Source: an uncultured Candidatus Saccharibacteria bacterium
GTDB taxonomy: Bacteria > Patescibacteriota > Minisyncoccia > Minisyncoccales > CAZBVF01
Assembly: GCA_964553275.1 (NCBI GenBank)
Contig: CAZKKG010000001.1
Coordinates: 36,993-100,992 of the forward strand
Length of the DNA: 64,000 bases
Reading direction: 5' to 3'
Below are positions 17,501 to 64,000 of this stretch, piece after piece. How positions within the stretch are numbered: the first letter of the stretch is position 1; the number at the start of each line of letters is the position of its first letter. Under the pieces are notes generated by a model. It was not told the origin of the DNA. It worked only from the letters and a program-made list of their open reading frames with translations, and searched no databases. The translations under genes and the position numbers were made by a program.

Positions 17501-20500
17501 TTAAACCATTAATATGCGAAAGATTTGCGATAGGAATAAAATCTAACACAGAACCATCCCAAGAGTAGATATAAATTCCATCTAATGTCCCTAATACTAT
17601 TTCTGTTTCATCATCATCATTCATGTTACCTAAAACACTCTTAACGTATTTTCCATGCGCCTTGGGCCAACCATCAAGAATATTTCCTTTGTGATCCAAT
17701 AAATAGAGCTCATTAAAAAATATTGATATTAACTCTCCGTATCCGTCATTATTTAAATCGGCCACGGCAATTGACTCTTTTGGAAAGGAGCCACCAGGAT
17801 AGGCAGGAAATCCTTCTAAATAATTTCCGTTTACATCTACGGCATACACATACCCTGACAAGTTGTAAAACATCATTTCAAGCTCCCCGTCTTTATTTAT
17901 ATCTTCTATGCTTACTGGACCTATATAGGGATACTTAGAATCAGAGAGTTTTTTGGGCCATCCATCCCAATAAGTTCCATCGTAATTCAGAATATGCAGA
18001 TATCCAGCATTGTCTCCAACTACTATTTCATTGTGCCCGTCTCCATTTAAATCAGCTACAGCCGGTCCCGACTGCATCATCCCGCCCCAAATATTATAGG
18101 GATTTGTTATTTCTCTTGGCCAACCGCTTACATAAGAACCATCATGAGTAAAAACATGAATATTTTTACCATAAGCAATAATTATATTATCTTGTCCGTT
18201 GTTGTTTATATCTGCTAAAGTTGGCTGTCCGTTGAGAGGTAATACATATCCTTCAAACCCTTCTATAGTATCTATTTCTTTTGGCCATCCTTCATGAATA
18301 GCCGGATCAATGTATATTTTAATATCCTCTACTTGCTCCTGCCTGTCTTCAAAATAGACTGTTAATTTTAAATAGTGATACCCGGGATTAGTAAAAGACG
18401 CAACATTCCATTTTCCTAAAACATTTTGATTCACTGGGTAATTTCCATTGTCCGTGAGAATTATTTCTTTGTCAGTACAATTGACATAATTTTCATCACA
18501 CCATTCAATGGTATAATTTTTAAAACCAAAACCCATTACCTTGCCTTCTATATTTATTTCCTCCCAAGTCGGGAGCACTTCTCGAGCCTGTCGAAGCTGC
18601 CAATTAGTCCAATTGGCCTCTCCTCTGATATCTTTAGGATAGGTTATTTTTATGTTATCCAAATTAACGAACCCAAATTCTTCGCTTTCCTCAGTCCCCA
18701 TTTTCGCAATTAATTTCAATGTATATTCCCCATCTTCCAGATATCTGAGATCCCAATTGCACAAAGTATCATCTGTAACAACAGCTAGACCGCTGCATAT
18801 TTCTATCCAATCTTTAGCTTCTGGATCTTTCCCGTTCACGTAATAAAGATTAAAACTATCACCAGCAACGGTTCCCTTGACGTTAAAATTCTCACCATCA
18901 ATTTCTACCGGGTTATATAAAACAGCTACAGAAGGTTTTTCAGCTTGAACTGCTTTTAAGACGTCTATCATGCCATAACCTTGAGTATATATGTCATAAC
19001 CTAAGTCTAAGGCAGTATTTCTTAAAACCATCTTTATTTCTTCCGGACTCCAGTCGGGATGGGCTTGTTTAATTAAAGCTGCTGCTCCGGCTATATGAGG
19101 GGTGGCCATGGAGGTTCCAGAGATGGAAGTATGCTCGTCGTCAAAACATTTCTTATCATTCCAAGCAGAGTCCCACTGAGAAGAACAGATTTCAACACCC
19201 GGGGCAACAACGTCCGGTTTGACTCCTGCAGCAGTGGGCCCTCTAGAACTAAACTTTGCGATTTTATCATCGCAATATGTATGAACCCCCACTTGATCTG
19301 TCATACAAGAAGCTCCTACGGTCAACGCTTTTCTGGCAGTGCCAGGAGAACCTATGGTTTCATACCCGTTACCGGAATTTCCAGCCGCTACTACTGCTAT
19401 GACTCCAGCCTTAACAGCCTCGTCTACAGCTAATGATGGTGGATCATCCTGATGGCAATATACAGGATTAAAACATCCTAAGCTCAAAGAAATAATATCA
19501 GCATGATCTGAATAATCACCATCCTGATTAGGATCAACTGCTATTTCAATGCCTGCTATGACTTGATCAAATGTTCCTGAACCAGAATCATTCAAGACCT
19601 TATATGCCAATAATTTAGCATCGGGCGCAACTCCTTTTAAATTTCCATTACTGGCAGCAATTCCAGCACAATGAGTCCCGTGACCATGATCATCCATTGG
19701 GTCTGAATCATTGTTGATAAAATCATAACCGCCAATCACCTTACATCCGCTCCCCAAACACCCGCCCAAATCAGGATGGGTATAATCTATACCCGTATCT
19801 ATTACAGCAATAGTTATTCCCTCACCTGTATAGCCCAAATCCCAAACTTCATCAGCCCGAATTAATGAAACAGAATCCGTTAACAGAGCTCTGACTTTAT
19901 AGTTTGGAAAGACTTCTTTAATATAATCTAATTTTTCAATCTCTTCTGCTTCTTCCTGAGAAATATCTAAAGCGATACCGTTGAAAACATGTTTAAATTC
20001 TCTTTCAATTTTCTGATCAAATCCAGAAATCTTTGCCTTGAGTTGAGTCTTATAGGATTGAAATGTCAAATTTAAATCACTTCTATAGGAATCAAATTGA
20101 GCACTTTCTTGAACAGAGGTTATTGCCTTCTTTTCTGCTTGATTATGAAGTTCTTGCCACTCACTTATAAGTGATTTCTCTTTAAATTGTATTATATAGC
20201 CTTGGAACTCAGATTCTTCAAGCCCGGCTTCTTCTGGAATAAGTTCCAGAGACTCTTGAGGAATATCCTCAAAAGTTTCATAAACTCCTGCCTCAGCTTT
20301 CTCCGTTAAATATATTCCTGCGTGCTCCCCAGACAGTATAGTCACTTCTTGTTGGGTTTTCTGTTGAGTTTCAGCAGTTTGCGATTCTTGACTCTCGTTT
20401 GCTTCTGGCAATGGTTCTTTCTTTCCTAATGATGCCTCCTCTCCACAGGAAACACATTGATCCTTGTAAAGCTCATTTAGCTTTTTCAAAGTCATGGAAC

Positions 20501-20957
20501 CTACAAACCCAGTAGCTTCTTCTATCTTCCATGGTACTAATATATCTTCTCTGTACTTCTTTTGAAAACGATTCACTGCTTTTTCGGTTAATGGTCCAAA
20601 ATACCCACTCACTATCCCTTCGGGATAGATTTCCGGGTCTTGTTTTAACATCTGTTGAAGTTTTTCGACCTGCTCTCCGCTGTCTCCGTATCTTAACGTT
20701 GATGTCAACGGCTTAATTTCTTGTTCTGGCTTCTCATTGTCCTGAGATTTATTAGAATCTTCCTCGTCTTCACCTACCTCCTTTTGATCCTCCACTGGTT
20801 GCTGCTGGAGCTGATCAAATCTTTGTTGAATTTGAACAATTTGCTCTTTGAGTTCTTCAATTGTAATTGTTTTTGTTGTTGCTTTAACAACATCCGAGAA
20901 AAAGAAGCAAACGACAAGAATTACTAAAAGATAGAGAAAGGTTTTCTTGTTTTTCAT
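14589..20957 (-). CDS. giant secreted subtilisin-like (S8) serine protease with PG-binding, FG-GAP, Kre9/KNH-like and PKD-like repeats
   Basis: 2122 aa. Signal peptide. Peptidoglycan-binding-like segment (LRYGDSGEQVEKLQQML...GYFGPLTEKAV). Subtilase triad (AVIDTGIDYTHPDLGG; HGTHCAGIAAS; GTSMATPHIAGAAAL). Five or more FG-GAP-like DxNxDGxxE repeats. Six ~105-aa repeats with I.SP.GG..W..G....I.W signature. One PKD-like module. Confidence 0.85.
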   Translation of the reverse strand: MKNKKTFLYLLVILVVCFFFSDVVKATTKTITIEELKEQIVQIQQRFDQLQQQPVEDQKEVGEDEEDSNKSQDNEKPEQEIKPLTSTLRYGDSGEQVEKLQQMLKQDPEIYPEGIVSGYFGPLTEKAVNRFQKKYREDILVPWKIEEATGFVGSMTLKKLNELYKDQCVSCGEEASLGKKEPLPEANESQESQTAETQQKTQQEVTILSGEHAGIYLTEKAEAGVYETFEDIPQESLELIPEEAGLEESEFQGYIIQFKEKSLISEWQELHNQAEKKAITSVQESAQFDSYRSDLNLTFQSYKTQLKAKISGFDQKIEREFKHVFNGIALDISQEEAEEIEKLDYIKEVFPNYKVRALLTDSVSLIRADEVWDLGYTGEGITIAVIDTGIDYTHPDLGGCLGSGCKVIGGYDFINNDSDPMDDHGHGTHCAGIAASNGNLKGVAPDAKLLAYKVLNDSGSGTFDQVIAGIEIAVDPNQDGDYSDHADIISLSLGCFNPVYCHQDDPPSLAVDEAVKAGVIAVVAAGNSGNGYETIGSPGTARKALTVGASCMTDQVGVHTYCDDKIAKFSSRGPTAAGVKPDVVAPGVEICSSQWDSAWNDKKCFDDEHTSISGTSMATPHIAGAAALIKQAHPDWSPEEIKMVLRNTALDLGYDIYTQGYGMIDVLKAVQAEKPSVAVLYNPVEIDGENFNVKGTVAGDSFNLYYVNGKDPEAKDWIEICSGLAVVTDDTLCNWDLRYLEDGEYTLKLIAKMGTEESEEFGFVNLDNIKITYPKDIRGEANWTNWQLRQAREVLPTWEEINIEGKVMGFGFKNYTIEWCDENYVNCTDKEIILTDNGNYPVNQNVLGKWNVASFTNPGYHYLKLTVYFEDRQEQVEDIKIYIDPAIHEGWPKEIDTIEGFEGYVLPLNGQPTLADINNNGQDNIIIAYGKNIHVFTHDGSYVSGWPREITNPYNIWGGMMQSGPAVADLNGDGHNEIVVGDNAGYLHILNYDGTYWDGWPKKLSDSKYPYIGPVSIEDINKDGELEMMFYNLSGYVYAVDVNGNYLEGFPAYPGGSFPKESIAVADLNNDGYGELISIFFNELYLLDHKGNILDGWPKAHGKYVKSVLGNMNDDDETEIVLGTLDGIYIYSWDGSVLDFIPIANLSHINGLSVGDIDKDGKLEIAMITNYGQGLHLFEKRDEGWQEADGFPIRDYSYRDGGDSSSHPLLGDLDTDIENEISIAIVDGDINVPRGELSELFAYSSDGSVVQNFPVKLNQTVFGTGSPMGDIDGDGKNELMTYTTAGSLLVWDMDGKSEDNEWPVFYHDSRHTNFYGEFLYPVEDSLTVISPNGGEKWSGKEKHKILWTSEGNIYSQLDVFIGGYDSNGNQTDDWKLIETEVSTAQGYFYWTPSNAPLNLPSCFSSIPVKYKIKIKETNGETDIIEDVSDDYFTIDFDPSIVITSPKGGEQITENEYLYINWEKYNWLGNKVGISLGGYSENGNQIDDWKKIITVSEGTAGLSWVPSQSNIFSTFSTLPVKYNIKLKEVLDSTETRTAAEDISDGYFTVDFVVAPSITVVSPNGGIFRVTKSSRIVWEQVEMEEKEVDILLAGYDENGKQIDDWKVIQAGVSADREFIFWLPRINDSVISSFSTFPDEYKIKIKETNGETDIIEDVSDDYFTIDFETLLTVISPNGGEEWVIGETYDITWESNGLDKVTIYLYGLSLRKTIVSNISASQGFYSWEISSDIDPDARYKIVVGCTEGSHFYSDDSDNYFSIVSEPPGNLPPVIDSIQSPAQLETNEKGTWIIEMHDPENESLTCTVSWGYEDVSEIANPDEYTIDSNNHIFVTFTHSYSEAGTYTIEFVVTDESDNTTKDSVIVEVIEEPPSIEESPFIIITSPKGGEQITKNEYLYIDWEKGNWTGSEIDISLGGYDNNGNQIDDWKKIMTVSERTAGLSWVPSQSDIFSTFSTLPVKYKIKLKEVLDSTETRTAVEDILNGYFTVDFVTSVNITSPKGGDRWYIGDTHDITWQAEGEGLITISIGPYLGGDRKTIAENVSASLGKYSWEVGTSLNGSVDPADDYKIVIINSTGLVGNWSGKFSITEQEQEEPLILRNIKGRLANISQTFSELVKGIKELLRGR

Positions 20958-23424: not shown

Positions 23425-23510
23425 ATTGTCTTCATATTTTACGAGATACGAGAATATATCTAAAACAATTCTATATTTTTATTCTATCATAAATGGGCTA
23501 CAATGAGGTA

Positions 23511-24557
23511 ATGATAGAAATAGACGGTTCTATGGGAGAGGGCGGAGGACAAATATTGCGAACAGCTTGTGCCCTTTCTGCAATAACAAAAAAATCTTGT
23601 CATATTTTCAACATCAGAAATAACCGCAGCAATCCCGGATTAAAAGCCCAGCATCTCTGGGCTATCCGTTCTTTGGCCGAGCTTTCTAAGGCAGAGCTCC
23701 GAGGAGCCGCCATAAACTCAAAGAAAATTTGGTTCTCCCCAGAAGAAATAGAGAGTAGAGACATTAATATAAAAATAGATACCGCAGGAAGCATAACTTT
23801 AATTTTACAAGCACTGATACCTGTTTGCTTGTTCGCTCAAAGCCCCGTTAAAATTTCTTTCAAAGGAGGTGCCACTGATACTTTTTTTTCACCAACTTTT
23901 GATTATTTCAACCATGTTTTCTTAAGAATACTTGAAGGAATTGGAATAAAAGCTGAAACAAAAATTCTAAAAAGAGGATATTATCCTGAAGGCGAAGCTC
24001 AGGTAGAAATAGTTATTTCCCCTTCAAAAATAAAGAAAATTGATTTAACGGAAAGAGGAAATTTAAAAAGAATTTTGGCAATTTCCAGAGCCTCTGAACG
24101 TCTTAAAGAGAAAAAAGTTGTCGAGATGCAATTGGCCGGAGTGAAAGAGGTTCTTGGAAAATTAAACCTTCCTATTGAAGAAAAAAAGGAGTATCACCAG
24201 AGCCGATCCTTGGGAAGTTCTATTTGTTTAGCGGCAGAATTTGAAAATACCATCATCGGAAGTGATAGTTTAGGAAAACTTGGGAAAAGCGCTGAACAGA
24301 TAGGAATAGAAGCAGCTCTCCAGCTGTTAAAAGAGCAGAAATCAAACGCCTGCCTTGATGAGCATTTAGCTGATCAAATCCTACCTTATATGGCCTTGGG
24401 TTTTAAGAAATCAAGGATAACTGTTCCTGAAATAACAGAACATCTTAAAACCAATATTCAGGTAATTGAAAAATTTTTTAAAGGAACTTTTGAAATAAAA
24501 AATTGCCTTGAACAACAAAACAAATTTTTGATAAGTTGGGTTCCCGAGAATAATTAG
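23511..24557 (+). CDS. rtcA: RNA 3'-terminal phosphate cyclase
   Basis: MIEIDGSMGEGGGQILRTACALSAI matches the RtcA N-terminal signature. The ORF-track start at 23493 adds 6 aa. Confidence 0.85.
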   Translation: MIEIDGSMGEGGGQILRTACALSAITKKSCHIFNIRNNRSNPGLKAQHLWAIRSLAELSKAELRGAAINSKKIWFSPEEIESRDINIKIDTAGSITLILQALIPVCLFAQSPVKISFKGGATDTFFSPTFDYFNHVFLRILEGIGIKAETKILKRGYYPEGEAQVEIVISPSKIKKIDLTERGNLKRILAISRASERLKEKKVVEMQLAGVKEVLGKLNLPIEEKKEYHQSRSLGSSICLAAEFENTIIGSDSLGKLGKSAEQIGIEAALQLLKEQKSNACLDEHLADQILPYMALGFKKSRITVPEITEHLKTNIQVIEKFFKGTFEIKNCLEQQNKFLISWVPENN

Positions 24558-31402: not shown

Positions 31403-32839
31403 TTATTCTCCTTTGGCAACAGCTAAGGGTACTAATCGCGCTACTTTTTCAGCTAAACCTGCATTGCAGACAATTTTAATAACGTCGTCAATGTTTTTGT
31501 AAGCCATTGGCGCTTCCTCTGCAATCCCCCTCATAGAATGAGATTTAATAATTATTCCTTTACGTTTTAATTCTTCTATAACCTCATTGCCTGAAATTTG
31601 TCTAATTGCTTGTTTTCTTGACATGATTCTGCCTGCTCCGTGGTTTACAGTATGCCATGCTTCTCCTGATTTTGTACACCCTGCCAAAACAAAAGAAGAT
31701 GTTCCCATGCTTCCGGGTATTAAGACGGGTTGTCCGACCAAACGATATTTTTCAGGAATGTCCGCGTGTCCAGGAGGAAAAGCACGAGTTGCCCCTTTCC
31801 TGTGAATTATCAATTTCTTTTTAACTCCATCGACCTCATGCTCTTCGATTTTGGCAATATTATGAGCAACATCATAGAGAAGTTCAAGTTTTGCTTCGTT
31901 CCCAAAAATCTTTTTCCAAATTTCTCTGATATAGAAAGCAATCATTTGTCTGTTTGCCCAGGCAAAATTACAGGCAGCACACATAGCTTTAAAGAATCTC
32001 TGCCCTTCCGGGGAGTTAAAAGGCATACAGGCCATTTCCCTGTCAGGAATATCTATTTTATACTTTTTCAAAGCCTCCCCTGCTGTTTTTAAATAATCCG
32101 TACAGTTTTGATGCCCAAGGCCTCTGGAACCGGTATGTATCATAATTACCACCTGATTCTCAAAAAGTCCGAAAGCTTTTGCTTTTTGATCGTCAAATAT
32201 CTCTTCAACTTTCTGAATTTCTAAAAAATGATTCCCTGAACCTAGGGTTCCCACTTGATTCCTTCCTCGGGATTTTGCTCTTTCTGAAACGCAGGAAGCA
32301 TCGGCCCCTTCCATTTTCCCCCCTTCTTCACAATTCTCAATATCATCCTTTGTCCCATAACCTTTTTTAATCAAACCAACTACCCCTTCTTCCAAAACTT
32401 CATCCACTTCTTTAAAAGAAAGCTTAGTTTCCCTTGCTTCACCCAACCCCGAAGGAATTTCTTCTTGGATTCTAGTAATCAATTTATCCAAATGTGGACG
32501 AATTTCTTTTTCAATATATTCTGATTTTAATAATCTGACTCCGCAATTTTGATCAAAACCGACGAAGCCGGGCGAGATAACGCCTTGGGTAAAATCTACC
32601 GCCCCCACTCCTCCTATGGGAGGACCGTAACCTGAATGAATGTCGGGCATCCCAATGGCATATTTTACAATTCCGGGCAGGGTAGTAATATTTATCAGCT
32701 GTTTCAAGGCATTTTCTTCTATCAATGGGAGCATCTTTTCAGAACTGTAAATTCGTGCAGGCACTTTCATACCCCTGCTTAGGTCTTTCGGGACTTCCCA
32801 TAACCAGTCACTAATTTTTACTAAACTATTTTTATCCAT
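31403..32839 (-). CDS. rtcB: RNA-splicing ligase RtcB
   Basis: 478 aa. GMPDIHSGYG ... GAGR ... hallmark His/Cys metal ligands of RtcB. Confidence 0.9.
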   Translation of the reverse strand: MDKNSLVKISDWLWEVPKDLSRGMKVPARIYSSEKMLPLIEENALKQLINITTLPGIVKYAIGMPDIHSGYGPPIGGVGAVDFTQGVISPGFVGFDQNCGVRLLKSEYIEKEIRPHLDKLITRIQEEIPSGLGEARETKLSFKEVDEVLEEGVVGLIKKGYGTKDDIENCEEGGKMEGADASCVSERAKSRGRNQVGTLGSGNHFLEIQKVEEIFDDQKAKAFGLFENQVVIMIHTGSRGLGHQNCTDYLKTAGEALKKYKIDIPDREMACMPFNSPEGQRFFKAMCAACNFAWANRQMIAFYIREIWKKIFGNEAKLELLYDVAHNIAKIEEHEVDGVKKKLIIHRKGATRAFPPGHADIPEKYRLVGQPVLIPGSMGTSSFVLAGCTKSGEAWHTVNHGAGRIMSRKQAIRQISGNEVIEELKRKGIIIKSHSMRGIAEEAPMAYKNIDDVIKIVCNAGLAEKVARLVPLAVAKGE

Positions 32840-47700: not shown

Positions 47701-48978
47701 ATGATCGTAAATATTCCCACTTCAATTCTAAAAGAGATAAAAGATATTCCTGACCTCAAAAGGAAAATAGAAAAGAATTTAAAGTCTTCTATTACTGAAC
47801 TATTGGAAATTATACTTGGGGGTGCGGTTGCTTTAAAAGCATCCGATTTACATTTCGAACCCCAAAAAGACCAAACAAAAATTCGCTTAAGGGTTGATGG
47901 TTTTTTGCAAGATATTACATTTTTAAACAACGACATTTATCAGAATGTTCTGTCTCGAGTTAAAATTCTTTCTAAAATTAAATTAAATATCACGGGCCGC
48001 CCTCAGCCGGGTCGTTTCACTATTTTCTTTAAAGACAAAGAAAAGGAAAATATTGAAGTAAGGGCCTCAACCCTGCCAACCGAAAACGGAGAGTCAATAG
48101 TACTGAGAATTTTAGACCCAAAGATGTTGATTGAAACAGAAAATCTCGGGCTAAGAAAAGACCTTTTAGATTTGTTTGAAAAAGAAATTCAACGACCTAA
48201 CGGGATGATAATCATTACCGGCCCCACAGGTTCTGGAAAAACTACCACCCTATATGCCTTTTTAAAAAAGATTCAGAAACCGGGGATTAAAATCATCACT
48301 ATTGAAGACCCTCCGGAGTATCAGCTTGAAGGAATTACCCAAACACAGGTAGATCAGTCTAAAAAATATACTTTTGCTTCAGGGTTGCAATCAATTATGC
48401 GCCAAGATCCCGATGTAATATTAGTTGGAGAAATCAGAGACTCTGAAACAGCGAAAATCGCTATTCAGGCTGCCCTTACCGGACATTTGGTCTTAACCAC
48501 CCTTCACACCAATGATGCTCCAGGCACCATAGCAAGGTTGGTAAGCTTAGAGGCAGAACCCGTAAACATAGGGCCTGCAATAAATATAGCAATTGCTCAA
48601 AGGTTAGTAAGAAAATTATGCCCCAAGTGCCGCCAAGTAAAAGAAGCCACCCCTGAAGAGATAAAAAGAATAAAGGATAGCTTAAAAAATATTCCAAAAG
48701 AGATAGGTGCCCCGGAGATTAAGGAAGGATTAAAGCTCCCTAAGGCAAAAGGATGTAAATACTGCAACTTTACTGGTTACAGGGAAAGAATAGGTATTTT
48801 TGAATCTTTCCTCGTGGATGAGGAAATAGAAAAGTTCATACTAAACAATCCTTCCATATCTTCATTAAGAGAAAAAGTTATTAAAAAAGGTATGGTAAAA
48901 ATGAAACAGGACGGATTAATCAAGGTTCTTAAGCAAGATACCACATTGGAAGAAATAGAAAGAGTGACCGGAAAATAA
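47701..48978 (+). CDS. GspE/PilB-type secretion/pilus ATPase (short form)
   Basis: 425 aa. Walker A GPTGSGKTTT, Asp/His boxes, tetracysteine CPKC...CKYC typical of GspE/PilB rather than PilT. Confidence 0.8.
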   Translation: MIVNIPTSILKEIKDIPDLKRKIEKNLKSSITELLEIILGGAVALKASDLHFEPQKDQTKIRLRVDGFLQDITFLNNDIYQNVLSRVKILSKIKLNITGRPQPGRFTIFFKDKEKENIEVRASTLPTENGESIVLRILDPKMLIETENLGLRKDLLDLFEKEIQRPNGMIIITGPTGSGKTTTLYAFLKKIQKPGIKIITIEDPPEYQLEGITQTQVDQSKKYTFASGLQSIMRQDPDVILVGEIRDSETAKIAIQAALTGHLVLTTLHTNDAPGTIARLVSLEAEPVNIGPAINIAIAQRLVRKLCPKCRQVKEATPEEIKRIKDSLKNIPKEIGAPEIKEGLKLPKAKGCKYCNFTGYRERIGIFESFLVDEEIEKFILNNPSISSLREKVIKKGMVKMKQDGLIKVLKQDTTLEEIERVTGK

Positions 48979-56214: not shown

Positions 56215-57363
56215 CTAGGACTTAATTGGCATTAAAATGTAAATATAACCCGTGTCCTTTGTTGATTTCAGCAGGGCTGGTCCATCTTCACCGTTAAGTT
56301 CGAAAATAACAGAGCCATCTTCCAGGTTTGATATACCATCTATTAAAAATTTGAAATTAAAAGAAATGTCTGCTTTCTCGCCGCCTATCTTTCCATCCAT
56401 AGATGATTTATGTTCCCCTATGTCCGGGTCTTGTGCAAAAAAAGTAATTAAATTCTTGCTAGGATCTACTTTTAAGTTTACCTTGTTTGTTCTGCCGCTA
56501 AAAAGAGAAGCGGTTTTAATTTTATTTAGAAAATCTTCTTTATTCAAAATAATCTGGGTTTTATAGTCTTTGGGAATTATTTCTTGATAATTTGGAAATA
56601 CACCCTCGATTAAACGCGAGGTCAGACAGAACTGAGGAAAGGAAAAATCCTCAGATAAGAATTCAAAAAATAACTGATTTGGTTCAAAATATATTTTTGT
56701 TTTAAATTCTTTTTTTGTTTGAGAGCTTACTTCAGAGATAATATTAGCCACCTCTTTCACCGCTTTTTGGGGAAGAATAAAAGAATAACCTTTATTAATT
56801 TTATTTTCATAATACATATCCTTTTTAGCTAATCTAAAACTGTCGGTACTCACCATTTCCATTTTCTCTTTCTGAATATTGAAATACACTCCGCATAATT
56901 CAGGATGGGTCTGTCCCTGACTGCAAAAATCCAAAACTTTTAATACTCCATTTAAGAAGGGGGTGCTATTTATCTCTATAAAATCTTTTTCGTTTTTAAC
57001 CTTAGGGATTATAGGAAAATCATCCGGAGAAAGTCCTTTTATATAAGACTTAAAGTCTTTTCCCGATACGATAAGGGTATCGTCTTTCCCTTTTAATTCG
57101 ATTTGCATGTCTTCATCTACTAAAGAATTAATAAGACTGGAGAAGGGTTTGGCGGGGATGGAAATCTGACCCTCTTGTTCCATTTTAATTAATGTTCGAT
57201 ATTCCATTCCTATCTCTAAATCCGTACCGACTAAAGTAAGGAAGTTTTGTTTTACTTTAATTAAAATATTATTTAACACGGGGAGTGTGGGGTTTTTTCC
57301 GGTTACTCTTTCAATAATATTTAAACCCTTCTTTAAATTATTCTTTATTATTATTAGTTTCAT
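56215..57363 (-). CDS. dnaN: DNA polymerase III beta sliding clamp
   Basis: 382 aa. MKLIIIKNNLKKGLNIIERVTGKNPTLPVLNNILI. Confidence 0.9.
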   Translation of the reverse strand: MKLIIIKNNLKKGLNIIERVTGKNPTLPVLNNILIKVKQNFLTLVGTDLEIGMEYRTLIKMEQEGQISIPAKPFSSLINSLVDEDMQIELKGKDDTLIVSGKDFKSYIKGLSPDDFPIIPKVKNEKDFIEINSTPFLNGVLKVLDFCSQGQTHPELCGVYFNIQKEKMEMVSTDSFRLAKKDMYYENKINKGYSFILPQKAVKEVANIISEVSSQTKKEFKTKIYFEPNQLFFEFLSEDFSFPQFCLTSRLIEGVFPNYQEIIPKDYKTQIILNKEDFLNKIKTASLFSGRTNKVNLKVDPSKNLITFFAQDPDIGEHKSSMDGKIGGEKADISFNFKFLIDGISNLEDGSVIFELNGEDGPALLKSTKDTGYIYILMPIKS

Positions 57364-57545
57364 GATTTTTTTATTGTTTTAGGTTCAATTTAATTGGGGA
57401 GAAATGGTGAATGAATTCGAATAAAAGAATGTGGAAAAAATATGAATAACAAAAATGGGTTGATTTTTCAAGAATTTACTAATTGTTTTTTAGTAGATTA
57501 TTCTATAGATTTTTATACAGGGTTATAAACAGAACCTTAACAAGA

Positions 57546-58892
57546 TTAAATCCTTGAAATCGTCTGTTTTATGATATCAATTTCTTCTCTCAATTGGTTG
57601 TTTTCTTCTATTTCTTTTGAAATTTTTTGAACCGCATAAATAGCAGTGGTGTGATCTCTGCCTCCAAAATTTCTTCCTATAAAAGGAAAGGAGCTTTTTA
57701 GTTCTTTTCTTAAAATATACATAGCAACTTGACGCGGCCTTACGATTTCTTTCTTTCTTGACGAATTTATTAAATCAACCTCTTTTATGGAATAAAATTC
57801 TGCCACTTCTTTAATTATTCTCTTAGGAGTAACTCTTTTATACGGAGAGGATATAATGTTTTTTAATAAAGCCTTAACTTCATTTTCATTAACAATACAA
57901 TTATTAACTTTTTGATAAACTATAACCTGATTTAAGGCACCCTCTAATTCTCTGATATTCCTTTTTATATTTGAAGCTATATATTCTATAATTTTCAAAG
58001 AAATATCTATTTGTTTTTCTTGAAGTTTTGTTTTGAGAATGGCTATTCTTGTCTCAACATCGGGTAGGCTTATGTCTGTTATCATCCCTCCCTCAAAACG
58101 TGAACGCAGTCTTTCTTCTAAGGCGGAAATTGCATTGGGGGGGCGATCGGAAGAAAGAATCACTTGCTTATTTCTCTCGTGTAAAGTATTAAATGTGTGA
58201 AAGAATTCTTCCTGAGTTTTTTCTTTCCCAGCAATAAATTGAATATCGTCAATTATTAAGACGTCAAAGGACCTATAGTTTTCTTTAAGCTTTTCAATGC
58301 TTTTATTCTTAATTGAATTTACAACTTCGGAGGTAAACTTCTCGGAAGGCAAATATTTAATCTTCTTTTTTGGAAACTTTTTATCAATCTCGTTGCCGAT
58401 CGCTTGAATTAAGTGAGTTTTTCCCAATCCCACTCCTCCGTATATGAATAAAGGGTTATAGGATGATCCCGGACTTTTACAAACAGCCTGAGCCGCTGCA
58501 TAGGCAAGTTCGTTAAAAGGTCCCACCACAAAATTATCAAATGTATAGCGGGGATTTAGATTAGTATCTTTATTGATTTTAAATTGTTGAAAGTTAAGCT
58601 GGCTTGTTTCTATTCTGGTAGGAGAATAGATTTTAACATTTAATCTTGGGTTTGAAACTTCATATTTCACAACCCTGACATCTTGATCCAAGGCTCTTAC
58701 CGTTTTCAAAATAAGCTTGTTGTATTTATTCTCCAGCCATTCTTTTGAAAAATTGTTAGGAACAGAAACGACAATTTCATTTTCTTTTTTATTTACAATT
58801 TTTGTATTTTTGAACCAAGTGGCAAAATTAGCTGGAGAAATATTAAATTGAATTTGCGCTAGCAGAGTCTGCCATAAATCTTCTTTTTTCAT
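57546..58892 (-). CDS. dnaA: chromosomal replication initiator DnaA
   Basis: 448 aa. Walker A GGVGLGKTHL, sensor/box VII, C-terminal DNA-binding domain. Confidence 0.95.
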   Translation of the reverse strand: MKKEDLWQTLLAQIQFNISPANFATWFKNTKIVNKKENEIVVSVPNNFSKEWLENKYNKLILKTVRALDQDVRVVKYEVSNPRLNVKIYSPTRIETSQLNFQQFKINKDTNLNPRYTFDNFVVGPFNELAYAAAQAVCKSPGSSYNPLFIYGGVGLGKTHLIQAIGNEIDKKFPKKKIKYLPSEKFTSEVVNSIKNKSIEKLKENYRSFDVLIIDDIQFIAGKEKTQEEFFHTFNTLHERNKQVILSSDRPPNAISALEERLRSRFEGGMITDISLPDVETRIAILKTKLQEKQIDISLKIIEYIASNIKRNIRELEGALNQVIVYQKVNNCIVNENEVKALLKNIISSPYKRVTPKRIIKEVAEFYSIKEVDLINSSRKKEIVRPRQVAMYILRKELKSSFPFIGRNFGGRDHTTAIYAVQKISKEIEENNQLREEIDIIKQTISRI

Positions 58893-59158
58893 GAAATGTA
58901 ATTATTTTTTTAAAAGCTTTTCCAAAAAATAACTTAAAATTTAACACTATTTTTTTTAGTTCAATCGTATTATAGCATAGCACAAATAGAATAAAAATAA
59001 AGGGGAAATACGTTAAAACGTGAACAAACTGTTTATAATTTGTTAAGAAATTCGAGATATTTTTAATGCCTATATTTTCTATTTATTACATATAAAGAGT
59101 TTGTCCTTTTGATTATGTTATGTTAGAATGCTAGTATATTTCATCGTAATATATCGTT
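58893..59158. other. candidate oriC/promoter region between divergent dnaA and rpmH
   Basis: 266-bp AT-rich intergenic region with degenerate DnaA-box-like 9-mers (tgtttataa, ttttccaaa). Second AT-rich spacer 57364-57545 contains tgtggaaaa (1 mismatch to TGTGGATAA). Confidence 0.4.
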
Positions 59159-59293
59159 ATGAGCATTACCTATAATCCCAAAAAGAGAAAAAGGAAAAAA
59201 GCACATGGATTTAGAATTAGAATGAGCACAAAGGCAGGGAGAAGCGTTCTAAGCAACAGGAGGAAGAAAAAAAGAAAGCAGCTTACTGTTTAG
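59159..59293 (+). CDS. rpmH: 50S ribosomal protein L34
   Basis: Hand-translated 44 aa: [44 protein letters not shown]. Below the ORF-track size cutoff. Confidence 0.9.
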
Positions 59294-59330
59294 CTCTTTT
59301 AGAAAGGCGCTTTTTAAATTTTATAAAAAG

Positions 59331-59675
59331 GTGTTTCCGAAAAGAAAAAGATTAAAAAAGAAAAAAGATTTTGATAAAGTTTTTCATGAAGGTGCAAGTT
59401 TTAAGGAAGACTTTTTATTTCTAAAGATTTTTAAGAATGACCTGGGGACTAATCGTTTCGGAGTAGCGGTTGGAAAAAAGACTTTCAATAAGGCAACAGA
59501 AAGAAATAGAATTAAGAGAAGAATAAATGAGTTGTTAAGATCTGAATTGCCCGAACTGAAAAAAGGATGGGACATTATAGTAATTATCAGCGGCAACATT
59601 AAAAACGAAAGTCATGGAGAATTAAAAGACAAAATTAATAAACTTTTCGAAAAAGCAAAATTAATTCTCGATTAA
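59331..59675 (+). CDS. rnpA: ribonuclease P protein component
   Basis: 114 aa. RLKKKKDF...NRFGVAVGKK...RNRIKRRI. Confidence 0.85.
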   Translation: MFPKRKRLKKKKDFDKVFHEGASFKEDFLFLKIFKNDLGTNRFGVAVGKKTFNKATERNRIKRRINELLRSELPELKKGWDIIVIISGNIKNESHGELKDKINKLFEKAKLILD

Positions 59676-59686
59676 CTTTATTATTC

Positions 59687-59896
59687 ATGGGAAAGAACAT
59701 TGTGCTTAAAGTAATAAAATTCTACCAATTCTTTATTTCGGCTAATTTTGGACGACATTGCAGATTTTATCCAACTTGTTCTGCCTATACCTATCAAGCT
59801 GTTGAAAAATATGGAATTTTCAAAGGTGTATTCAAGGGTTTTTGGAGAATCCTAAAATGTGGTCCATGGTCTCGAGGAGGAGTAGATTTACCATAA
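59687..59896 (+). CDS. yidD: membrane protein insertion efficiency factor YidD
   Basis: 69 aa. CRFYPTCSAYTYQAVEKYG. Confidence 0.85.
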   Translation: MGKNIVLKVIKFYQFFISANFGRHCRFYPTCSAYTYQAVEKYGIFKGVFKGFWRILKCGPWSRGGVDLP

Positions 59897-59899
59897 TTT

Positions 59900-60655
59900 A
59901 TGGAATTTTTAATTAACATTTTTAATGTAATTCTATATCAGCCGCTTTTCAATATTCTGATTGTGTTCTACCAATATCTGCCGGGGCATGATTTTGGAAT
60001 AGCGGTCATAGCATTAACCCTTTTTGTCAGAATAATCTTGTATCCTGTAATGATGCACTCCATCAAGTCCCAGAAGAAGATTCAGGATATTCAGCCCAAG
60101 ATTCAGGAGATTCAGGAAAAATATAAGGACGACAAGGAAAAACAGGCAAAGGCGGTAATGGAAGTTTACAAAGAATCAAAGGTTAACCCTTTTGGGGGAT
60201 GTCTTCCCCTACTCCTTCAGCTTCCGATTCTAATTGCGCTATACCGCGTATTTTGGAATAGTTTTCAAATAGATCCAACGCTTGTTTACAGTTTTATCCC
60301 GCCCCCGGAAGCACTTAACCCTCTTTTTCTGGGGATAATAGACTTGTCTCGGCCCAATATCATTTTTGCCATACTTGCAGGAATAGGACAATATTTTCAA
60401 GCAAAAACTTCCTTTGCAAAAGTTCCTAAAAGAAAAAAGAAGGGAGAAAATCAGATGAGTCAGTTTTCCGGTATGATGCAGAAACAAATGCTTTATTTCT
60501 TTCCCGCGTTTACTTTCTTCATCCTTTTAAGACTTCCTGCGGCTCTCGGTTTATACTGGATGATAAACATCCTATTTTCGATTTTTCAACAACATTCAAT
60601 TTATAAATCAGATAAACCAAAAGAAGAACCCAACCATGGCACAATCAAATCCTGA
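59900..60655 (+). CDS. yidC: membrane protein insertase YidC (short form)
   Basis: 251 aa, multi-TM. LNILIVFYQ...GIAVIALT...QKKIQDIQPKIQEIQEKYKDD. Confidence 0.85.
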   Translation: MEFLINIFNVILYQPLFNILIVFYQYLPGHDFGIAVIALTLFVRIILYPVMMHSIKSQKKIQDIQPKIQEIQEKYKDDKEKQAKAVMEVYKESKVNPFGGCLPLLLQLPILIALYRVFWNSFQIDPTLVYSFIPPPEALNPLFLGIIDLSRPNIIFAILAGIGQYFQAKTSFAKVPKRKKKGENQMSQFSGMMQKQMLYFFPAFTFFILLRLPAALGLYWMINILFSIFQQHSIYKSDKPKEEPNHGTIKS

Positions 60656-61100
60656 AAAAATTAAAGAAATCATAGAAGAATTCTTTCAGAAAATGGGTTT
60701 TGGGGTTGAGGTAGAGATAAGAATACCTCAAGACCTGACTATTCCTATTGATATTAAAACCTTCGAACCACAGATTTTAATCGGTAAAAACGGAGAAACC
60801 TTAACAGAAATACAGCGCTTATTAAAAATAATCCTTAAAAGAAAAATTGCTCCAGAGAAGAGCTTTTACATTGATTTAGATATAAATGACTATAAAAAGA
60901 AGAAGGTGGAATATTTAAGGGAGATGGCAAGAGATGCTGCCAATGAAGTTTCCCTTTCAAAGAAAGAAAGAAAACTGGCTTCGATGCCAGCTTACGAAAG
61001 AAGAGTTATTCATCTGGAGTTAGTAGACAGAGAGGATATTACAACAGAAAGCGTGGGAGAGGAACCCGAGAGAAGCATTGTCATAAAACCCGCTCTTTAA
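60636..61100 (+). CDS. jag: Jag/KhpB-like RNA-binding protein (KH plus R3H)
   Basis: 154 aa. KH-like ILIGKNGETL and C-terminal R3H (YERRVIHLEL). Confidence 0.75.
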   Translation: MAQSNPEKIKEIIEEFFQKMGFGVEVEIRIPQDLTIPIDIKTFEPQILIGKNGETLTEIQRLLKIILKRKIAPEKSFYIDLDINDYKKKKVEYLREMARDAANEVSLSKKERKLASMPAYERRVIHLELVDREDITTESVGEEPERSIVIKPAL

Positions 61101-61125
61101 TTGATATTAAATAAAGAATTCTCAA

Positions 61126-61150
61126 GAAGCCCCCTTCGGGGCTTTTTTAA
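61126..61150. terminator. bidirectional intrinsic terminator
   Basis: gaagcccc-ttcg-gggcttttttaa between convergent jag and the 61147 gene. Confidence 0.7.
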
Positions 61151-62637
61151 TCTCCTTTTATAATCTTTCCCTTAAATACTTGTAGAACTTCGATGCATGG
61201 TTGTCTATTCCACCACCAAAATCCTTGAGTACAAAAAGTTCCGACAAAATCATCTTCTAAGTTTCTATCGCTCTTGTCAAACACTTCGCAGGGTTTTGCA
61301 TTGTCTATGCTGCCGATTTCAATTTGTCCTACCGACCAACTAGCCTCTGGCGAGCCGTAAGCTATGGCAACCCAGTTTTCTTCTTTGTCTACTTTAATTG
61401 AATAACAAGGATTCATGTTAACTGTTTTATTGCTTTTGATATTCTTTATTTCTTTTTTTGATTCACCCGGTTCAAGATCCTCGTTGAAATCTCGATGATC
61501 ATAAATACTAATGCCTTCACCTTCGGCCACTTCCTCTATCATGAAAGGAGTAACCGAACGAAATTCAAAATTTAGCAATTTTTTATCTTCTGTCGCGGTC
61601 ACGCAATCTCCGTCAAATCCATCTCCTTTATGCATAACTAATCCATATTCATAGTCTTCGTTTTCATCGGGAATTAGATAAACTTGTTTAACCTTTCCCT
61701 TAAACTCTTCAATCACAGGACTTTTAACTGATAATTTGTAGCAATTTTCTTTAATTTTCTCTAACATTTCATCTTCTGCGTCCTTATCTAAATTAGCAGA
61801 ACCTTGCATAAAAGACACAAAGCCATCGATTGGTTCCTTACAAAGCCAGATCCCGGAACCAACTGAGATTGCCGGTTTAATATCCTGAGGGCTTATTACT
61901 GCCGAATCAAATTTAATCTGGTTTAAGATTGTAATAGAAGAAATCAAAATTAATACTCCTAATATGGCATAGAGTATTTGGTTTGTAGCATCGGATTTGA
62001 GTCCGGGATTTTCACCGGAAATTAAATATTTTACCCCGGCTATAACTAGTACTCCAAAAGCAACAATTCCCACTATCCAAAGGGCGAAGTTAAAGATGTA
62101 TTTTACATACTTATCTAAGGGGGTAGAGACCTTCTCTGGTGTTTCGGCTCCCCTAATGTTGGGGTAATCTATTTCCAAATCCCTTCCTCCTCCATTGTCT
62201 TGGGCAAAAGCAAAATTAAAAGTTGATTGGTCGGCAGGGCCGGTAGAAGGTTCAGAAAGTATAAGGAGTTCGGGGTTTATTTCGCTCAAGACTAATACGG
62301 AGAGAAGCAAAATCATTATTCCTATCAGAGCCGAAGAGGCTTGATTCTTTGCATCCTTTTGGATTGAAGCATTTCCCGTAGATGTTAAGTATCTTATTCC
62401 TGCAAAAGCCAGTACTCCAAAAGCGACAATTCCCACTATCCAAAGGGCGAAGTTAAAGATGTATTTTACATATTCTGGCAAAGGAATTGAAGTTTCCTCA
62501 GGATGAATTTCCATCAGTTTTGGGTAATCAATTTCAAGACTCCTTGAAAAAACAGAGAAAGCAGAGCTGCCGGATAAAAGGATAGCTGTCAGAAGGATAA
62601 GGCCGATTTTTATAAATTTAGTATGTTTCTTTGCCAT
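61147..62637 (-). CDS. secreted protein with two tandem T4SS-pilin-like (TrbC/VirB2-like) helix-pair modules and Cys-containing C-terminal domain
   Basis: 496 aa. Signal peptide, then twice LEIDYP...YVKYIFNFALWIVGIVAFGVL..AG.(R/K)YL.S.(G/E)N...K.DA.NQ. The two copies are about 90% identical at nucleotide level (62050-62110 vs 62412-62472). Confidence 0.5.
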   Translation of the reverse strand: MAKKHTKFIKIGLILLTAILLSGSSAFSVFSRSLEIDYPKLMEIHPEETSIPLPEYVKYIFNFALWIVGIVAFGVLAFAGIRYLTSTGNASIQKDAKNQASSALIGIMILLLSVLVLSEINPELLILSEPSTGPADQSTFNFAFAQDNGGGRDLEIDYPNIRGAETPEKVSTPLDKYVKYIFNFALWIVGIVAFGVLVIAGVKYLISGENPGLKSDATNQILYAILGVLILISSITILNQIKFDSAVISPQDIKPAISVGSGIWLCKEPIDGFVSFMQGSANLDKDAEDEMLEKIKENCYKLSVKSPVIEEFKGKVKQVYLIPDENEDYEYGLVMHKGDGFDGDCVTATEDKKLLNFEFRSVTPFMIEEVAEGEGISIYDHRDFNEDLEPGESKKEIKNIKSNKTVNMNPCYSIKVDKEENWVAIAYGSPEASWSVGQIEIGSIDNAKPCEVFDKSDRNLEDDFVGTFCTQGFWWWNRQPCIEVLQVFKGKIIKGD

Positions 62638-62640
62638 AAC

Positions 62641-63699
62641 TTAATTGAGGATAGCTATAATTTGATTGCAAGCGCAGCCTGCCGCGTTTTGAAGTTCTTC
62701 AACCTCCTTTATTTTATCTTCCATCTCTGAGACAGGGCAGGGATTTCCTTTTTTTGGCTTTAACGGAGAGCAGGGCATTGAGTCACCGCAATCATAATGG
62801 CACACTCCTTCGCATTGGGCTGTGCATTTCTCTGCTGTAAGGCATTCGTTTGGAAGCTCTGCTATCTCTTGGGAAATAGTTGCTATTTCTTCCATCGGGG
62901 CTAAAATTTCTTCTAAATACTTTTTTAGATTTTCAGCTTGTGACTCTGTTAATCTTCCCCAATATATAAAATGTTCAAGCTCAGAATCAATATCTTCTCT
63001 CTCGGAGTCTATCCTATTTCTATAGTACAACAATTCGGCTGCCGCTAAAACAATCTCTTTCTGTTTTTCAATGATCTCTTCTCTATTGGGGCAGGGATCG
63101 CCATAGCAGCGGATAGCTTGACAACTCCATCCAACACAATCGCATTCAGAAAATGTAGAGCAGCAACAGCATTCTTTAATCAATTCTAACAGCTCCTTGT
63201 CTCTATTTATCAGATTGGGAATGATAGTATCCCTAACCTTTTTAACCAAGTCTTTTATTCTGACTAAGGGGTCTTGAGAGACTGGAGCCGTTGGAGAGGG
63301 AGATGGGCCGACTTCGGCTTCTTCTAAGTCCTGTTTTTCTAATATAACCAAATCCGGGTTGATAGTGTTTAGAATGAAGACGGATCCCAGAAGTATTGCC
63401 ATTCCTAAAATAACAGCAGTTATTTGGTCCTTAGCGCCTTTAACGGCTGAAGGGCTGCCAACAGAGGTTAGATAACGTAATCCTGCCCAAACCAGGCATC
63501 CAAAAGCTATAATTCCCAATATCCATATTGAGAAATCAAAAAGATATTTTACATATTGAAATATGGAAGTTGAGGTACCGGGAGCTTCGGATCCTCCCGG
63601 GATGTCGGGATAATCAACATCTAATGCTCTTTCTGCCAACAAAATGGTTGTTGGCAAGAATATAAGGATTAAGATTGTCAATAAAATCTTTTTTATCAT
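62641..63699 (-). CDS. secreted protein with one T4SS-pilin-like module plus Cys-rich domain
   Basis: 352 aa. LDVDYP...YVKYLFDFSIWILGIIAFGCLVWAGLRYLTSVG...KGAKDQ, then clusters CCCCSTFSECDCVGWSCQAIRCYGDPCP and CTAQCEGVCHYDCGDSMPCSP. Confidence 0.5.
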   Translation of the reverse strand: MIKKILLTILILIFLPTTILLAERALDVDYPDIPGGSEAPGTSTSIFQYVKYLFDFSIWILGIIAFGCLVWAGLRYLTSVGSPSAVKGAKDQITAVILGMAILLGSVFILNTINPDLVILEKQDLEEAEVGPSPSPTAPVSQDPLVRIKDLVKKVRDTIIPNLINRDKELLELIKECCCCSTFSECDCVGWSCQAIRCYGDPCPNREEIIEKQKEIVLAAAELLYYRNRIDSEREDIDSELEHFIYWGRLTESQAENLKKYLEEILAPMEEIATISQEIAELPNECLTAEKCTAQCEGVCHYDCGDSMPCSPLKPKKGNPCPVSEMEDKIKEVEELQNAAGCACNQIIAILN

Positions 63700-63703
63700 A
63701 GTT

Positions 63704-64000
63704 TTAATCTTTTACCCTGCAACAGAAGAAGTTGTATTCATAACATTCTTCAATTACCTTGCATTCCTTATGGTTTTTTACAAGATGTTCAAATTCTTCT
63801 TTGCATTCGTCGATATCGAAACATTCACAATCTCCGAATAGTCCTTCCTGGTATTCATCTGCCAAAGATGAGAGGTTTGAAAAAAGATTATCTATATCTA
63901 CGCTGCCGCCGCTTGCACCCAGTATTTCACCATCAGGACCTATCGCTCCCATGCTTCTCTCGCAATTCAAGAAAAGCCATCCCGGAGCAATCTCTTCGGG
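63704..64000 (-). CDS. Cys-rich protein C-terminus (5'-truncated by window edge)
   Basis: Minus-strand reading frame stays open to the window end. C-terminal CECFDIDECKEE...KECKVIEECYEYNFFCC. The ORF-track Met at 63970 is probably internal. Confidence 0.4.
   Translation of the reverse strand, partial: PEEIAPGWLFLNCERSMGAIGPDGEILGASGGSVDIDNLFSNLSSLADEYQEGLFGDCECFDIDECKEEFEHLVKNHKECKVIEECYEYNFFCCRVKD

Follow-up and report, generated by a model that had tools for sequence, protein, structure and literature searches.

VirB2-like membrane hairpins with large C-terminal domains at the end of a probable Patescibacteria-type type IV secretion operon beside dnaA

Three adjacent genes at the edge of a 64,000-nt stretch of DNA from an uncultured Candidatus Saccharibacteria bacterium (contig CAZKKG010000001.1, positions 36,993 to 100,992, assembly GCA_964553275.1; this whole stretch is the window analyzed here) are likely the last genes of a Patescibacteria-type type IV secretion system (T4SS) operon, related to MPF-FATA conjugation systems found in single-membrane bacteria, in which VirB2-like membrane hairpins would display host-facing C-terminal domains. 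The genes, G1, G2, and G3, are minus-strand open reading frames (ORFs) packed tightly, with intergenic spacing of only 3-4 nt. The G1 product (61147..62637; 496 amino acids, aa) starts with a signal peptide, continues with two VirB2-like hairpin modules in tandem, and ends in a beta-rich ectodomain of 242 aa. In the G2 product (62641..63699; 352 aa), the signal peptide is followed by a single hairpin module (aa 24-120) and then by a helical ectodomain bearing two Cys knobs. Of G3 (63704..64000) only the C-terminal 98 codons lie in the window; the complete gene, for a product of 660 aa, runs on for about 1.7 kb outside the window. Together they form a tandem array of three pilin-like genes, with four modules in all, near dnaA, dnaN, rnpA, and rpmH, the G1 stop codon lying about 2.3 kb from the dnaA start codon.

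G1 and G2 share an N-terminal plan in which a basic hydrophobic signal-like segment leads into an acidic LEIDYP or LDVDYP stretch and then a helix-loop-helix; helix 1 follows the pattern YVKY.F.F..WI.GI.AFG.L, the short basic loop reads RYLTS.G....AK.Q, and a hydrophobic helix 2 completes the hairpin. An initial annotation of the window had ascribed this N-terminus to all three genes, which can be read directly for G1 and G2; the start of G3 lies outside the window, and on contig L001, which continues the sequence (see below), the full protein begins in the same way, with a signal peptide, DLEVDYP, and YVKYIFNF. Across the three proteins, the box has the acidic consensus L(E/D)(I/V)xYP. Profile searches bear out the pilin-like character then suggested for this segment: the Pfam T4SS_pilin model PF18895 (gathering cutoff 26.6 bits) matches G1 over two stretches at 57.8 bits (E = 1.2e-15) and G2 above the cutoff at 27.4 bits, while G3, at 25.0 bits, falls slightly under it; the G3 hairpin module is 41% identical to that of G2, and most G3 orthologs have a precomputed PF18895 annotation. 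The match is not, as had been supposed, to the TrbC type: with the classical TrbC/VirB2 model PF04956 (gathering cutoff 27.9 bits), G2 reaches only 10.2 bits (E = 0.95), and G1 and G3 give no match. The best NCBIfam match for all three proteins is NF045849 (Mbov_0395 pilin-like), at 38.4, 17.7, and 17.4 bits against a cutoff of 40. Generic membrane proteins could in principle match PF18895 spuriously, and the same segments do match many unrelated transmembrane families weakly, but an E-value of 1e-15 with two copies, the conservation of the non-hydrophobic positions Y31, P32, S76, and G78 (at least 90% across 100 diverse proteins), and a VirB4 linkage kept in four lineages make a chance resemblance very improbable. 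Judged by its profile matches, the N-terminal module is a T4SS (VirB2-like) pilin module.

Hydropathy, charge, and the helices of AlphaFold2 (AF2) models agree on a predicted signal peptide, two hydrophobic helices, and a short basic loop. Acidic flanks (net charge 0 to -7) border the hairpin on either side, and basic residues mark the loop and the end of helix 1; both termini are therefore predicted to lie outside the cell and the loop inside, the topology of VirB2 and TraA. A further VirB2-like trait is genomic, with VirB4 and TrsD-, PrgI-, and TrbL-like genes directly upstream. What the trio does not share is the small mature protein of about 70-130 aa that is essentially a hairpin: the proteins measure 352, 496, and 660 aa, and their C-terminal domains 228-531 aa. 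The hairpin of the G3 AF2 model can be superimposed on 8dfu, a conjugation pilin of Aeropyrum pernix (prob 0.87, TMt 0.65, root-mean-square deviation 2.2 Å over 66 columns), which is weak evidence because a two-helix fold is simple.

The initial annotation found no VirB4 in the window, suggested that the proteins may use a T4SS or pilus elsewhere, and proposed a look just past the window end. The absence is real for the window; it is an edge effect, because a VirB4 gene ends about 2.1 kb beyond that end, in the same operon as G3-G2-G1. An exact-protein look-up of G2 returned 17 contigs. L001, a 59-kb JGI contig, differs from the window at 5 of 11,360 overlapping nt (99.96% identical), and this near-identity allows it to represent the sequence past position 64000. 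The full G3 gene is at L001:8014-9996, and outward from it follow genes for a 122-aa membrane protein, a 1262-aa VirB4-like ATPase, a 210-aa TrsD/TraC-like protein, and a 134-aa PrgI(VirB3)-like protein, then a 132-aa protein, a Band_7 gene on the opposite strand, and a 735-aa TrbL_3 (VirB6-like) protein. The look past the window end thus located the G3 N-terminus, VirB4, and a VirB6-like gene, and the T4SS, rather than lying elsewhere, shares its operon with the trio. The VirB4 protein scores 325.1 bits with NCBIfam NF045971 (conju_CD1110, drawn from conjugation systems in single-membrane bacteria; cutoff 325) and 225.6 bits with a mycoplasma-type VirB4 model. The TrsD (29.2 bits, cutoff 200) and PrgI (26.7 bits, cutoff 27) matches are weak and below their cutoffs, and their order and sizes fit; the TraC-like and TrbL_3 labels are precomputed annotations. 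A scan of window ORFs (those of at least about 300 aa and a selection of smaller ones) turned up neither a relaxase nor a coupling protein, nor any other secretion gene; the upstream 10 kb on L001, and on L007, a contig from a relative, likewise contained neither relaxase nor coupling protein.

Two further observations concern this operon. VirB4 (L001:3836-7624; about 66076-69864 in extended window coordinates) is interrupted within the Walker A P-loop, where an intein of roughly 667 aa with a LAGLIDADG homing-endonuclease domain is inserted; the junctions read GVAGSGK/TIHGNEPV...MFVHN/SYAIKLE, the intein-less orthologs on L007 and L008 read GVAGSGK/SYAIKLE, the first intein residue is apparently an unusual Thr, and an intein is also present in the VirB4 of an 82% relative, L009. 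Between VirB4 and G3, the 122-aa ORF (L001:7626-7994) encodes a membrane protein whose N-terminus is acidic and rich in proline and which matches no family; its position is conserved on L007, L008, and L009 (113-151 aa), and it may be an unrecognized T4SS component.

Type IV pilins have a class III signal, the type processed by prepilin peptidase, and only one N-terminal helix. Our trio could be imagined as substrates of a type IV pilus-like or type II secretion system (T2SS)-like machine driven by the orphan GspE/PilB-type ATPase at 47701, which had been put forward as a possible partner. Such an ATPase does exist in the window, scoring 427 bits with GspE, 410 with PilB, and 64 with VirB11. 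But the trio has Sec-type signals, a helical hairpin, and a VirB4 operon, and it lacks the class III signal, the single helix, and the PilB/PilC/PilD linkage of type IV pilus/T2SS pilins; the ATPase gene, in turn, lies 12 kb away among tsaE, a 5'-3' exonuclease gene, an nrnA-like gene, and ruvB. We rejected the link, the gene being unlinked and surrounded by housekeeping genes, and regard this route as hardly credible. The ATPase itself (47701-48978, plus strand, 425 aa) is without the long N-terminal region present in full-length PilB and GspE, its model match beginning at 89-168; it lies between the nrnA-like gene and ruvB, and no pilin, PilC, or PilD genes were found near it.

The arrangement recurs in relatives. 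On L007, L008, and L009, the order is VirB6-like, PrgI-like, TrsD-like, VirB4, small membrane protein, G3-like, G2-like, and G1-like, with protein identities of 34-82%. On L007 and L008, the trio is followed by jag, yidC, rnpA, dnaA, and dnaN, which answers in the affirmative the question of whether homologous clusters also sit beside jag/yidC; the L009 contig stops inside jag. The G3-, G2-, and G1-like proteins are 648, 346, and 356 aa on L007 (G3 homolog 34% identical), 674, 775, and 491 aa on L008 (G1 homolog 43% identical), and 657, 370, and 496 aa on L009. G2 orthologs occupy the middle position on all three contigs (42-81% identity), and for G3, 23 or more full-length relatives were identified, at identities as low as 26%, in which some 20 of the Cys residues are invariant or almost so. 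Judged from these alignments, the trio is no fast-varying pilin array: G3, G2, and G1 each belong to an orthologous family of their own, and their order is fixed. The 775-aa G2 ortholog (L008:7672-9999) carries a low-complexity insert of about 420 aa, rich in Ser, Glu, Ile, Leu, and Asn, which separates its first Cys knob from the remaining ectodomain.

T4SSs are widespread in Patescibacteria, with VirB4 related to MPF-FATA and with homologues of TrsD, PrgI/VirB3, and VirB6 (Quinonero-Coronel et al. 2025, PMC12102498). The same analysis counted VirB2-like pilins (PF18895 plus PF04956) in 1,948 Patescibacteria assemblies and 441 arrays of 2-11 pilin genes, with a mean of 25% identity between array members; relaxases are usually absent, and the locus typically lies near dnaA, dnaN, rnpA, and rpmH (PMC12102498). 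The T4SS genes of Southlakia epibionticum, several predicted pilin genes among them, are essential (Wang et al. 2023, PMC10633639; PMC12857230). Because Patescibacteria T4SSs with pilin arrays beside dnaA have already been described (PMC12102498, PMC10633639), the trio is an instance of a known system. Like these described systems, the Southlakia locus (SEML1_0006-0019) among them, it combines a CD1110-family VirB4; TrsD-, PrgI/VirB3-, and VirB6-like genes, here known from weak matches or precomputed labels; tandem PF18895 genes beside virB4; a location beside dnaA, dnaN, rnpA, and rpmH; and no relaxase or coupling protein in the 10 kb examined. Unlike the published arrays, it consists of proteins of 352-660 aa with large conserved ectodomains, one of them with two hairpin modules, and of three orthologous families in fixed order, next to a VirB4 split by a 667-aa intein. 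These published analyses contain no discussion of ectodomains on pilin-like proteins, nor of a fixed-order ectodomain trio, a double module with a conversion tract, or an intein-split VirB4 (PMC12102498, PMC10633639).

Comparison with other systems separates the hairpin from what is attached to it. Like VirB2, TrbC, and TraA of the Agrobacterium Ti plasmid, RP4, and F, the trio has a signal peptide, two helices, a basic loop, and a VirB4-containing operon, whereas those classical pilins are about 70-120 aa when mature, have no ectodomain, and belong to double-membrane bacteria. The Mbov_0395 family (NF045849) of mycoplasma integrative and conjugative elements likewise supplies a pilin-like protein to a T4SS of single-membrane bacteria, but our scores are under its cutoff, and the 80-position model has no ectodomain. 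The modeled hairpin superposes on archaeal Ced/Ted pilins (Aeropyrum pernix 8dfu), a fold-only comparison at 17% sequence identity, and the archaeal pilins are without an ectodomain. With VirB5-type minor pilins and tip adhesins and with Gram-positive PrgB, the trio would share a proposed extracellular role in target contact, and the G3 ectodomain is elongated and helical; no sequence similarity and no significant structural similarity to these proteins was found, and the trio is anchored through a VirB2-like hairpin instead. Bartonella and Anaplasma VirB2 arrays also place several tandem pilin paralogs in a T4SS locus, but those are small, variable pilins with a presumed role, cited in PMC12102498, in varying antigens or host range, whereas the trio paralogs are conserved orthologous families with distinct ectodomains.

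G2 and G3 are rich in Cys, with 19 residues (5.4%) in G2 and 33 (5.0%) in G3, against a background of 1.06% in 39 other window ORFs. The Cys strings quoted in the initial annotation are all present in the sequence, and its description of the proteins as Cys-rich holds for G2 and G3; it fails for G1, which has 7 Cys (1.4%), six of them invariant within the family alignment. G2 Cys knob 1 (aa 177-204; 63088..63171, minus strand; CCCCSTFSECDCVGWSCQAIRCYGDPCP) and knob 2 (aa 286-322; 62734..62844, minus strand; CLTAEKCTAQCEGVCHYDCGDSMPC...GNPCP) each align with the G3 knob at aa 463-492, and each of the three knobs closes with G(D/N)PCP, after which a helix begins. Among 143 related representatives, 13 contain this motif, with 16 occurrences in total where composition would predict 0.04. 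The AF2 model of G3, built from a 23-sequence alignment (pLDDT 73.8, pTM 0.64), has long helices at 173-205, 262-310, 442-461, and 493-521 with Cys-rich beta hairpins between them. The G2 and G3 ectodomains are helical hairpins with Cys-knob caps ending in G(D/N)PCP. Comparison of the G3 model with PDB and viral structures gave no significant match, and a G3-family profile run against PDB sequences returned noise only. A likeness of G3 to the IpaD, XaxA/YaxA, and NheA helical bundles was set aside as insignificant (E > 1, TM 0.1-0.3).

G1 is built differently. Its signal peptide (aa 1-31; 62545..62637, minus strand) has a hydrophobic stretch at aa 8-31, aligns with the signal peptides of single-module homologs, and ends in ...AFSVFS ahead of RSLEIDYP, where it is presumed to be cleaved. 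Module 1 (aa 32-125; 62263..62544, minus strand) consists of the LEIDYP box, helix 1 (YVKYIFNFALWIVGIVAFGVL...), a basic loop, and helix 2, with AF2 helices at 53-85 and 90-120. Module 2 (aa 152-246; 61900..62184, minus strand) contains the best Pfam stretch, aa 181-239, and AF2 helices at 174-206 and 211-240. The two tandem pilin-like modules seen in the initial annotation are thus confirmed, and they are 53% identical to each other. The near-identical DNA that it reported is also real, save that the second coordinate was off by 1: positions 62050-62110 match 62413-62473 (not 62412-62472) at 59 of 61 nt, at an offset of 363 nt and with a 47-nt exact run, within a 132-nt repeat that is 77% identical and of which the G2 module is a third copy at 62%.

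This patch does not date the duplication. Eight G1 homologs, down to 43% identity, have both modules, orthologs at 43-53% identity included, and seven have one module with the same ectodomain. Modules of the same number are more alike across species than are the two modules within one protein (84-96% versus 53% in close relatives, 55-62% versus 42-46% in distant ones), and so the duplication is old. The near-identity is limited to helix 1, where the same codon is used at 19 of 21 conserved residues, versus 8 of 22 in the flanks; the 82% relative (P0003) has the same patch pattern, with its own lineage-specific synonymous states common to both its modules, and the 43% relative has no comparable codon patch in its two modules. 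Because the codon identity is confined to the patch and lineage-specific states are shared between modules, the patch (62050..62110 in helix 1 of module 2 and its counterpart 62413..62473 in helix 1 of module 1) is, on codon usage, a tract of local gene conversion. A recent internal duplication, as first proposed, was rejected: orthologs down to 43% share the double module, and gene conversion explains the patch.

The linker between the modules bears on how G1 matures. Its motif NFAFAQ (aa 141-146; 62200..62217, minus strand) resembles a retained signal-peptide c-region with an A-x-A-like site; A145 is invariant in the G1 family alignment, and N[FYL][AV][FL]A, which also forms the signal-peptide end of single-module homologs, is kept in 8 of 8 double-module orthologs. 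Because of this match, an internal cleavage of G1 at NFAFAQ is conceivable, strictly as a hypothesis. The RP4 pilin TrbC is trimmed at its C-terminus, and the trio might by extension be precursors from which proteolysis frees the hairpins, with the ectodomains acting as removable pro-domains; a cut of G1 between A-F-A and Q would release a free pilin of about 115 aa and leave module 2 with the ectodomain. The persistence of the motif in all eight orthologs despite varying flanks, its identity with the single-module signal-peptide end, and the existence of polypilins with 6-11 modules speak for such a scheme, but the site lies about 27 residues past helix 2, far from the membrane for signal peptidase I, and the ectodomains are conserved with invariant Cys, which argues that they have a function of their own. 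We consider a precursor or polyprotein unlikely.

The G1 ectodomain (aa 255-496; 61150..61875, minus strand) is beta-rich, with six invariant Cys, and its AF2 model reaches a pLDDT of 85-90 across about residues 260-430. Its top Foldseek match in the PDB is the beta-gamma-crystallin 5z6e (prob 0.96, E = 0.075, TMt 0.60), and hhalign with a crystallin-bearing pilin fusion, P0074, gives a weak alignment (prob 32%, pairwise E = 5e-4). A Pfam scan of 15 G1-family members found no ectodomain domain and no Crystall (PF00030), and a homolog search with the G1 ectodomain alone was uninformative, returning a single protein that was already known. We treat the apparent beta-gamma-crystallin likeness of the model as a lead only.

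The hairpin is found with large C-terminal domains well beyond this locus. When 1.84 billion representative proteins were searched with a profile built from the three window modules, 21,219 clusters scored E <= 1e-3, of which 3,052 reached E <= 1e-10. The 143 closest clusters (the new ids among the best 150 listed) have a median length of 445 aa, with 129 of at least 300 aa and 6 under 200 aa; the LExxYP box is present in 90 of them, and the median Cys content of the tails is 3.3%. PF18895 was matched by 91 of 100 close representatives scanned, and most tails had no Pfam domain; those found were SLT (5), Peptidase_C39_2 (3), Peptidase_C39 (2), NlpC/P60 (2), Crystall (2), dockerin (1), and metallopeptidase (1). 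Because the ranking favors close and multi-module relatives, these fractions describe this subfamily, not all PF18895 proteins. Fusions of the hairpin to peptidoglycan hydrolase domains (SLT, NlpC/P60) and C39-like peptidases, also seen in P0078 and P0079, raise the prospect that VirB1-like activity may arrive as a VirB2-like fusion. On domain composition, the survey argues that the hairpin would often be a T4SS-associated anchor for extracellular domains, VirB1-like wall hydrolases included.

Polypilins with 6-11 tandem hairpins per polypeptide also occur, for example, 6 modules in 552 aa and 11 in 1147 aa. Multi-hairpin database proteins include P0083, P0088, P0092, P0193, and P0080, the last of 891 aa with three modules and two G1-type ectodomains. 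The papers cited here on the Patescibacteria T4SS report gene arrays instead of multi-module pilin proteins (PMC12102498, PMC10633639).

We posit that the operon, in the order TrbL/VirB6-like, PrgI/VirB3-like, TrsD-like, VirB4 (with its intein), small membrane protein, G3, G2, and G1, would work as follows. After Sec export and removal of the signal peptide, each hairpin would span the cytoplasmic membrane like VirB2 and TraA, its loop facing the cytoplasm and its two ends facing out, and would be the part handled by the VirB4/VirB6/VirB3 machine. Because the hairpin termini are predicted outside and the hairpin would be handled by this machine, the C-terminal domains would be exposed on the cell exterior and form the extracellular portion of the apparatus that faces the host. 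The displayed form could be a short fiber or collar of decorated subunits or a set of docked anchors, in which the Cys-stapled helical stalks of G2 and G3 and the beta-rich head of G1 would together confer rigidity and make contact. The view of the trio as pilin-anchored surface proteins, already voiced in the initial annotation, fits both this topology and the family-wide fusion pattern.

A true decorated pilus would be a more conventional product: the hairpins would polymerize like VirB2 and TraA into a lipid-containing helical filament with the ectodomains outside, as in giant flagellins, and G3, G2, and G1 would be co-assembling or position-specific subunits. The pilin family match, the pilin-like modeled hairpin, and the termini predicted outside accord with this idea; reviews speculate on a pilus (PMC12857230), one from 2025 leaving its existence as a question (PMC12857230); and small stand-alone pilins of the same subfamily occur elsewhere (P0141, 130 aa; P0209, 133 aa). 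But a small major pilin is absent from the operon, the same hairpin is fused to wall hydrolases, where polymerization seems unnecessary, and the conserved, fixed order of the trio is more suggestive of a defined complex than of a homopolymer. We take a decorated pilus seriously while leaning away from it.

The display of host-facing domains by hairpins at the end of a T4SS operon, which we favor, has its own difficulties. By itself G3 is under the Pfam cutoff and G2 is barely over it, and a hydrophobic two-helix hairpin is so simple a fold that a structural match of the models carries little weight. Classical VirB2 pilins are small, and the trio proteins are 352-660 aa. L007-type single-module operons have no small stand-alone pilin, which makes a conventional pilus questionable. 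Finally, the ectodomains have no significant structural or sequence relatives, and so a role in adhesion or contact is deduced from location only.

The surroundings of the trio match the initial placement of the cluster beside the origin: dnaN(-), dnaA(-), rpmH, rnpA, yidD, yidC, and jag(+) lie directly next to G1 (56215..61100; ORFs, with Pfam labels from the matching contig L001). Between the convergent stops of jag and G1, the sequence reads as a GC-rich hairpin, AAGCCCC-CTTC-GGGGCTT, with a T run (61125..61148), in a window of about 35% G+C. By its makeup this is probably the operon terminator, facing jag-yidC-rnpA-rpmH-dnaA; it is absent from the list of a consensus terminator scan, and promoter and terminator scans gave no signal exceeding shuffled expectation within genes.

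Elsewhere in the window, a class I tRNA synthetase (5162-8746, minus strand, 1194 aa, Anticodon_1 and DUF5915) has a complete histidine-phosphatase (His_Phos_1) domain inserted at residues 508-675, in the middle of its catalytic domain. A predicted surface protease (14589-20957, minus strand, 2122 aa) combines PG_binding_1, Inhibitor_I9, subtilase S8, FG-GAP, Kre9/KNH-like Ig, and PKD domains. RtcA (RNA 3'-phosphate cyclase; 23493-24557, plus strand) and RtcB (RNA ligase; 31403-32839, minus strand) are encoded 7 kb apart, and a presenilin/signal-peptide-peptidase-type aspartyl protease (PF06550; 29223-30110, minus strand) could in principle act on membrane hairpins or signal peptides.

To our knowledge, no secretion machine other than the T4SS has been shown to be essential for a cultivated patescibacterium. 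The system described here probably serves an epibiotic lifestyle, through adhesion to, uptake from, or exchange with a host cell, rather than conjugation. In a more speculative and rather improbable extension, the Patescibacteria hairpin would act less as a pilin than as an all-purpose module, coupled to the T4SS, that exports and anchors large extracellular domains such as VirB1-like wall hydrolases; in this lineage, the trio would build an undescribed host-contact structure of Cys-knob stalks (G3 and G2) and a crystallin-like head (G1) in place of a conventional pilus, and G1 cleaved between AFA and Q would provide the only free pilin of the system. Taken alone, the window is one further example of a published system. 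Together with the family survey, the locus indicates that many genes counted as VirB2-like pilins encode large ectodomain proteins, with Cys-stapled stalks, wall hydrolases, or crystallin-like heads; these fusions change the structure to be expected where epibiont and host meet, and they name concrete proteins to study.

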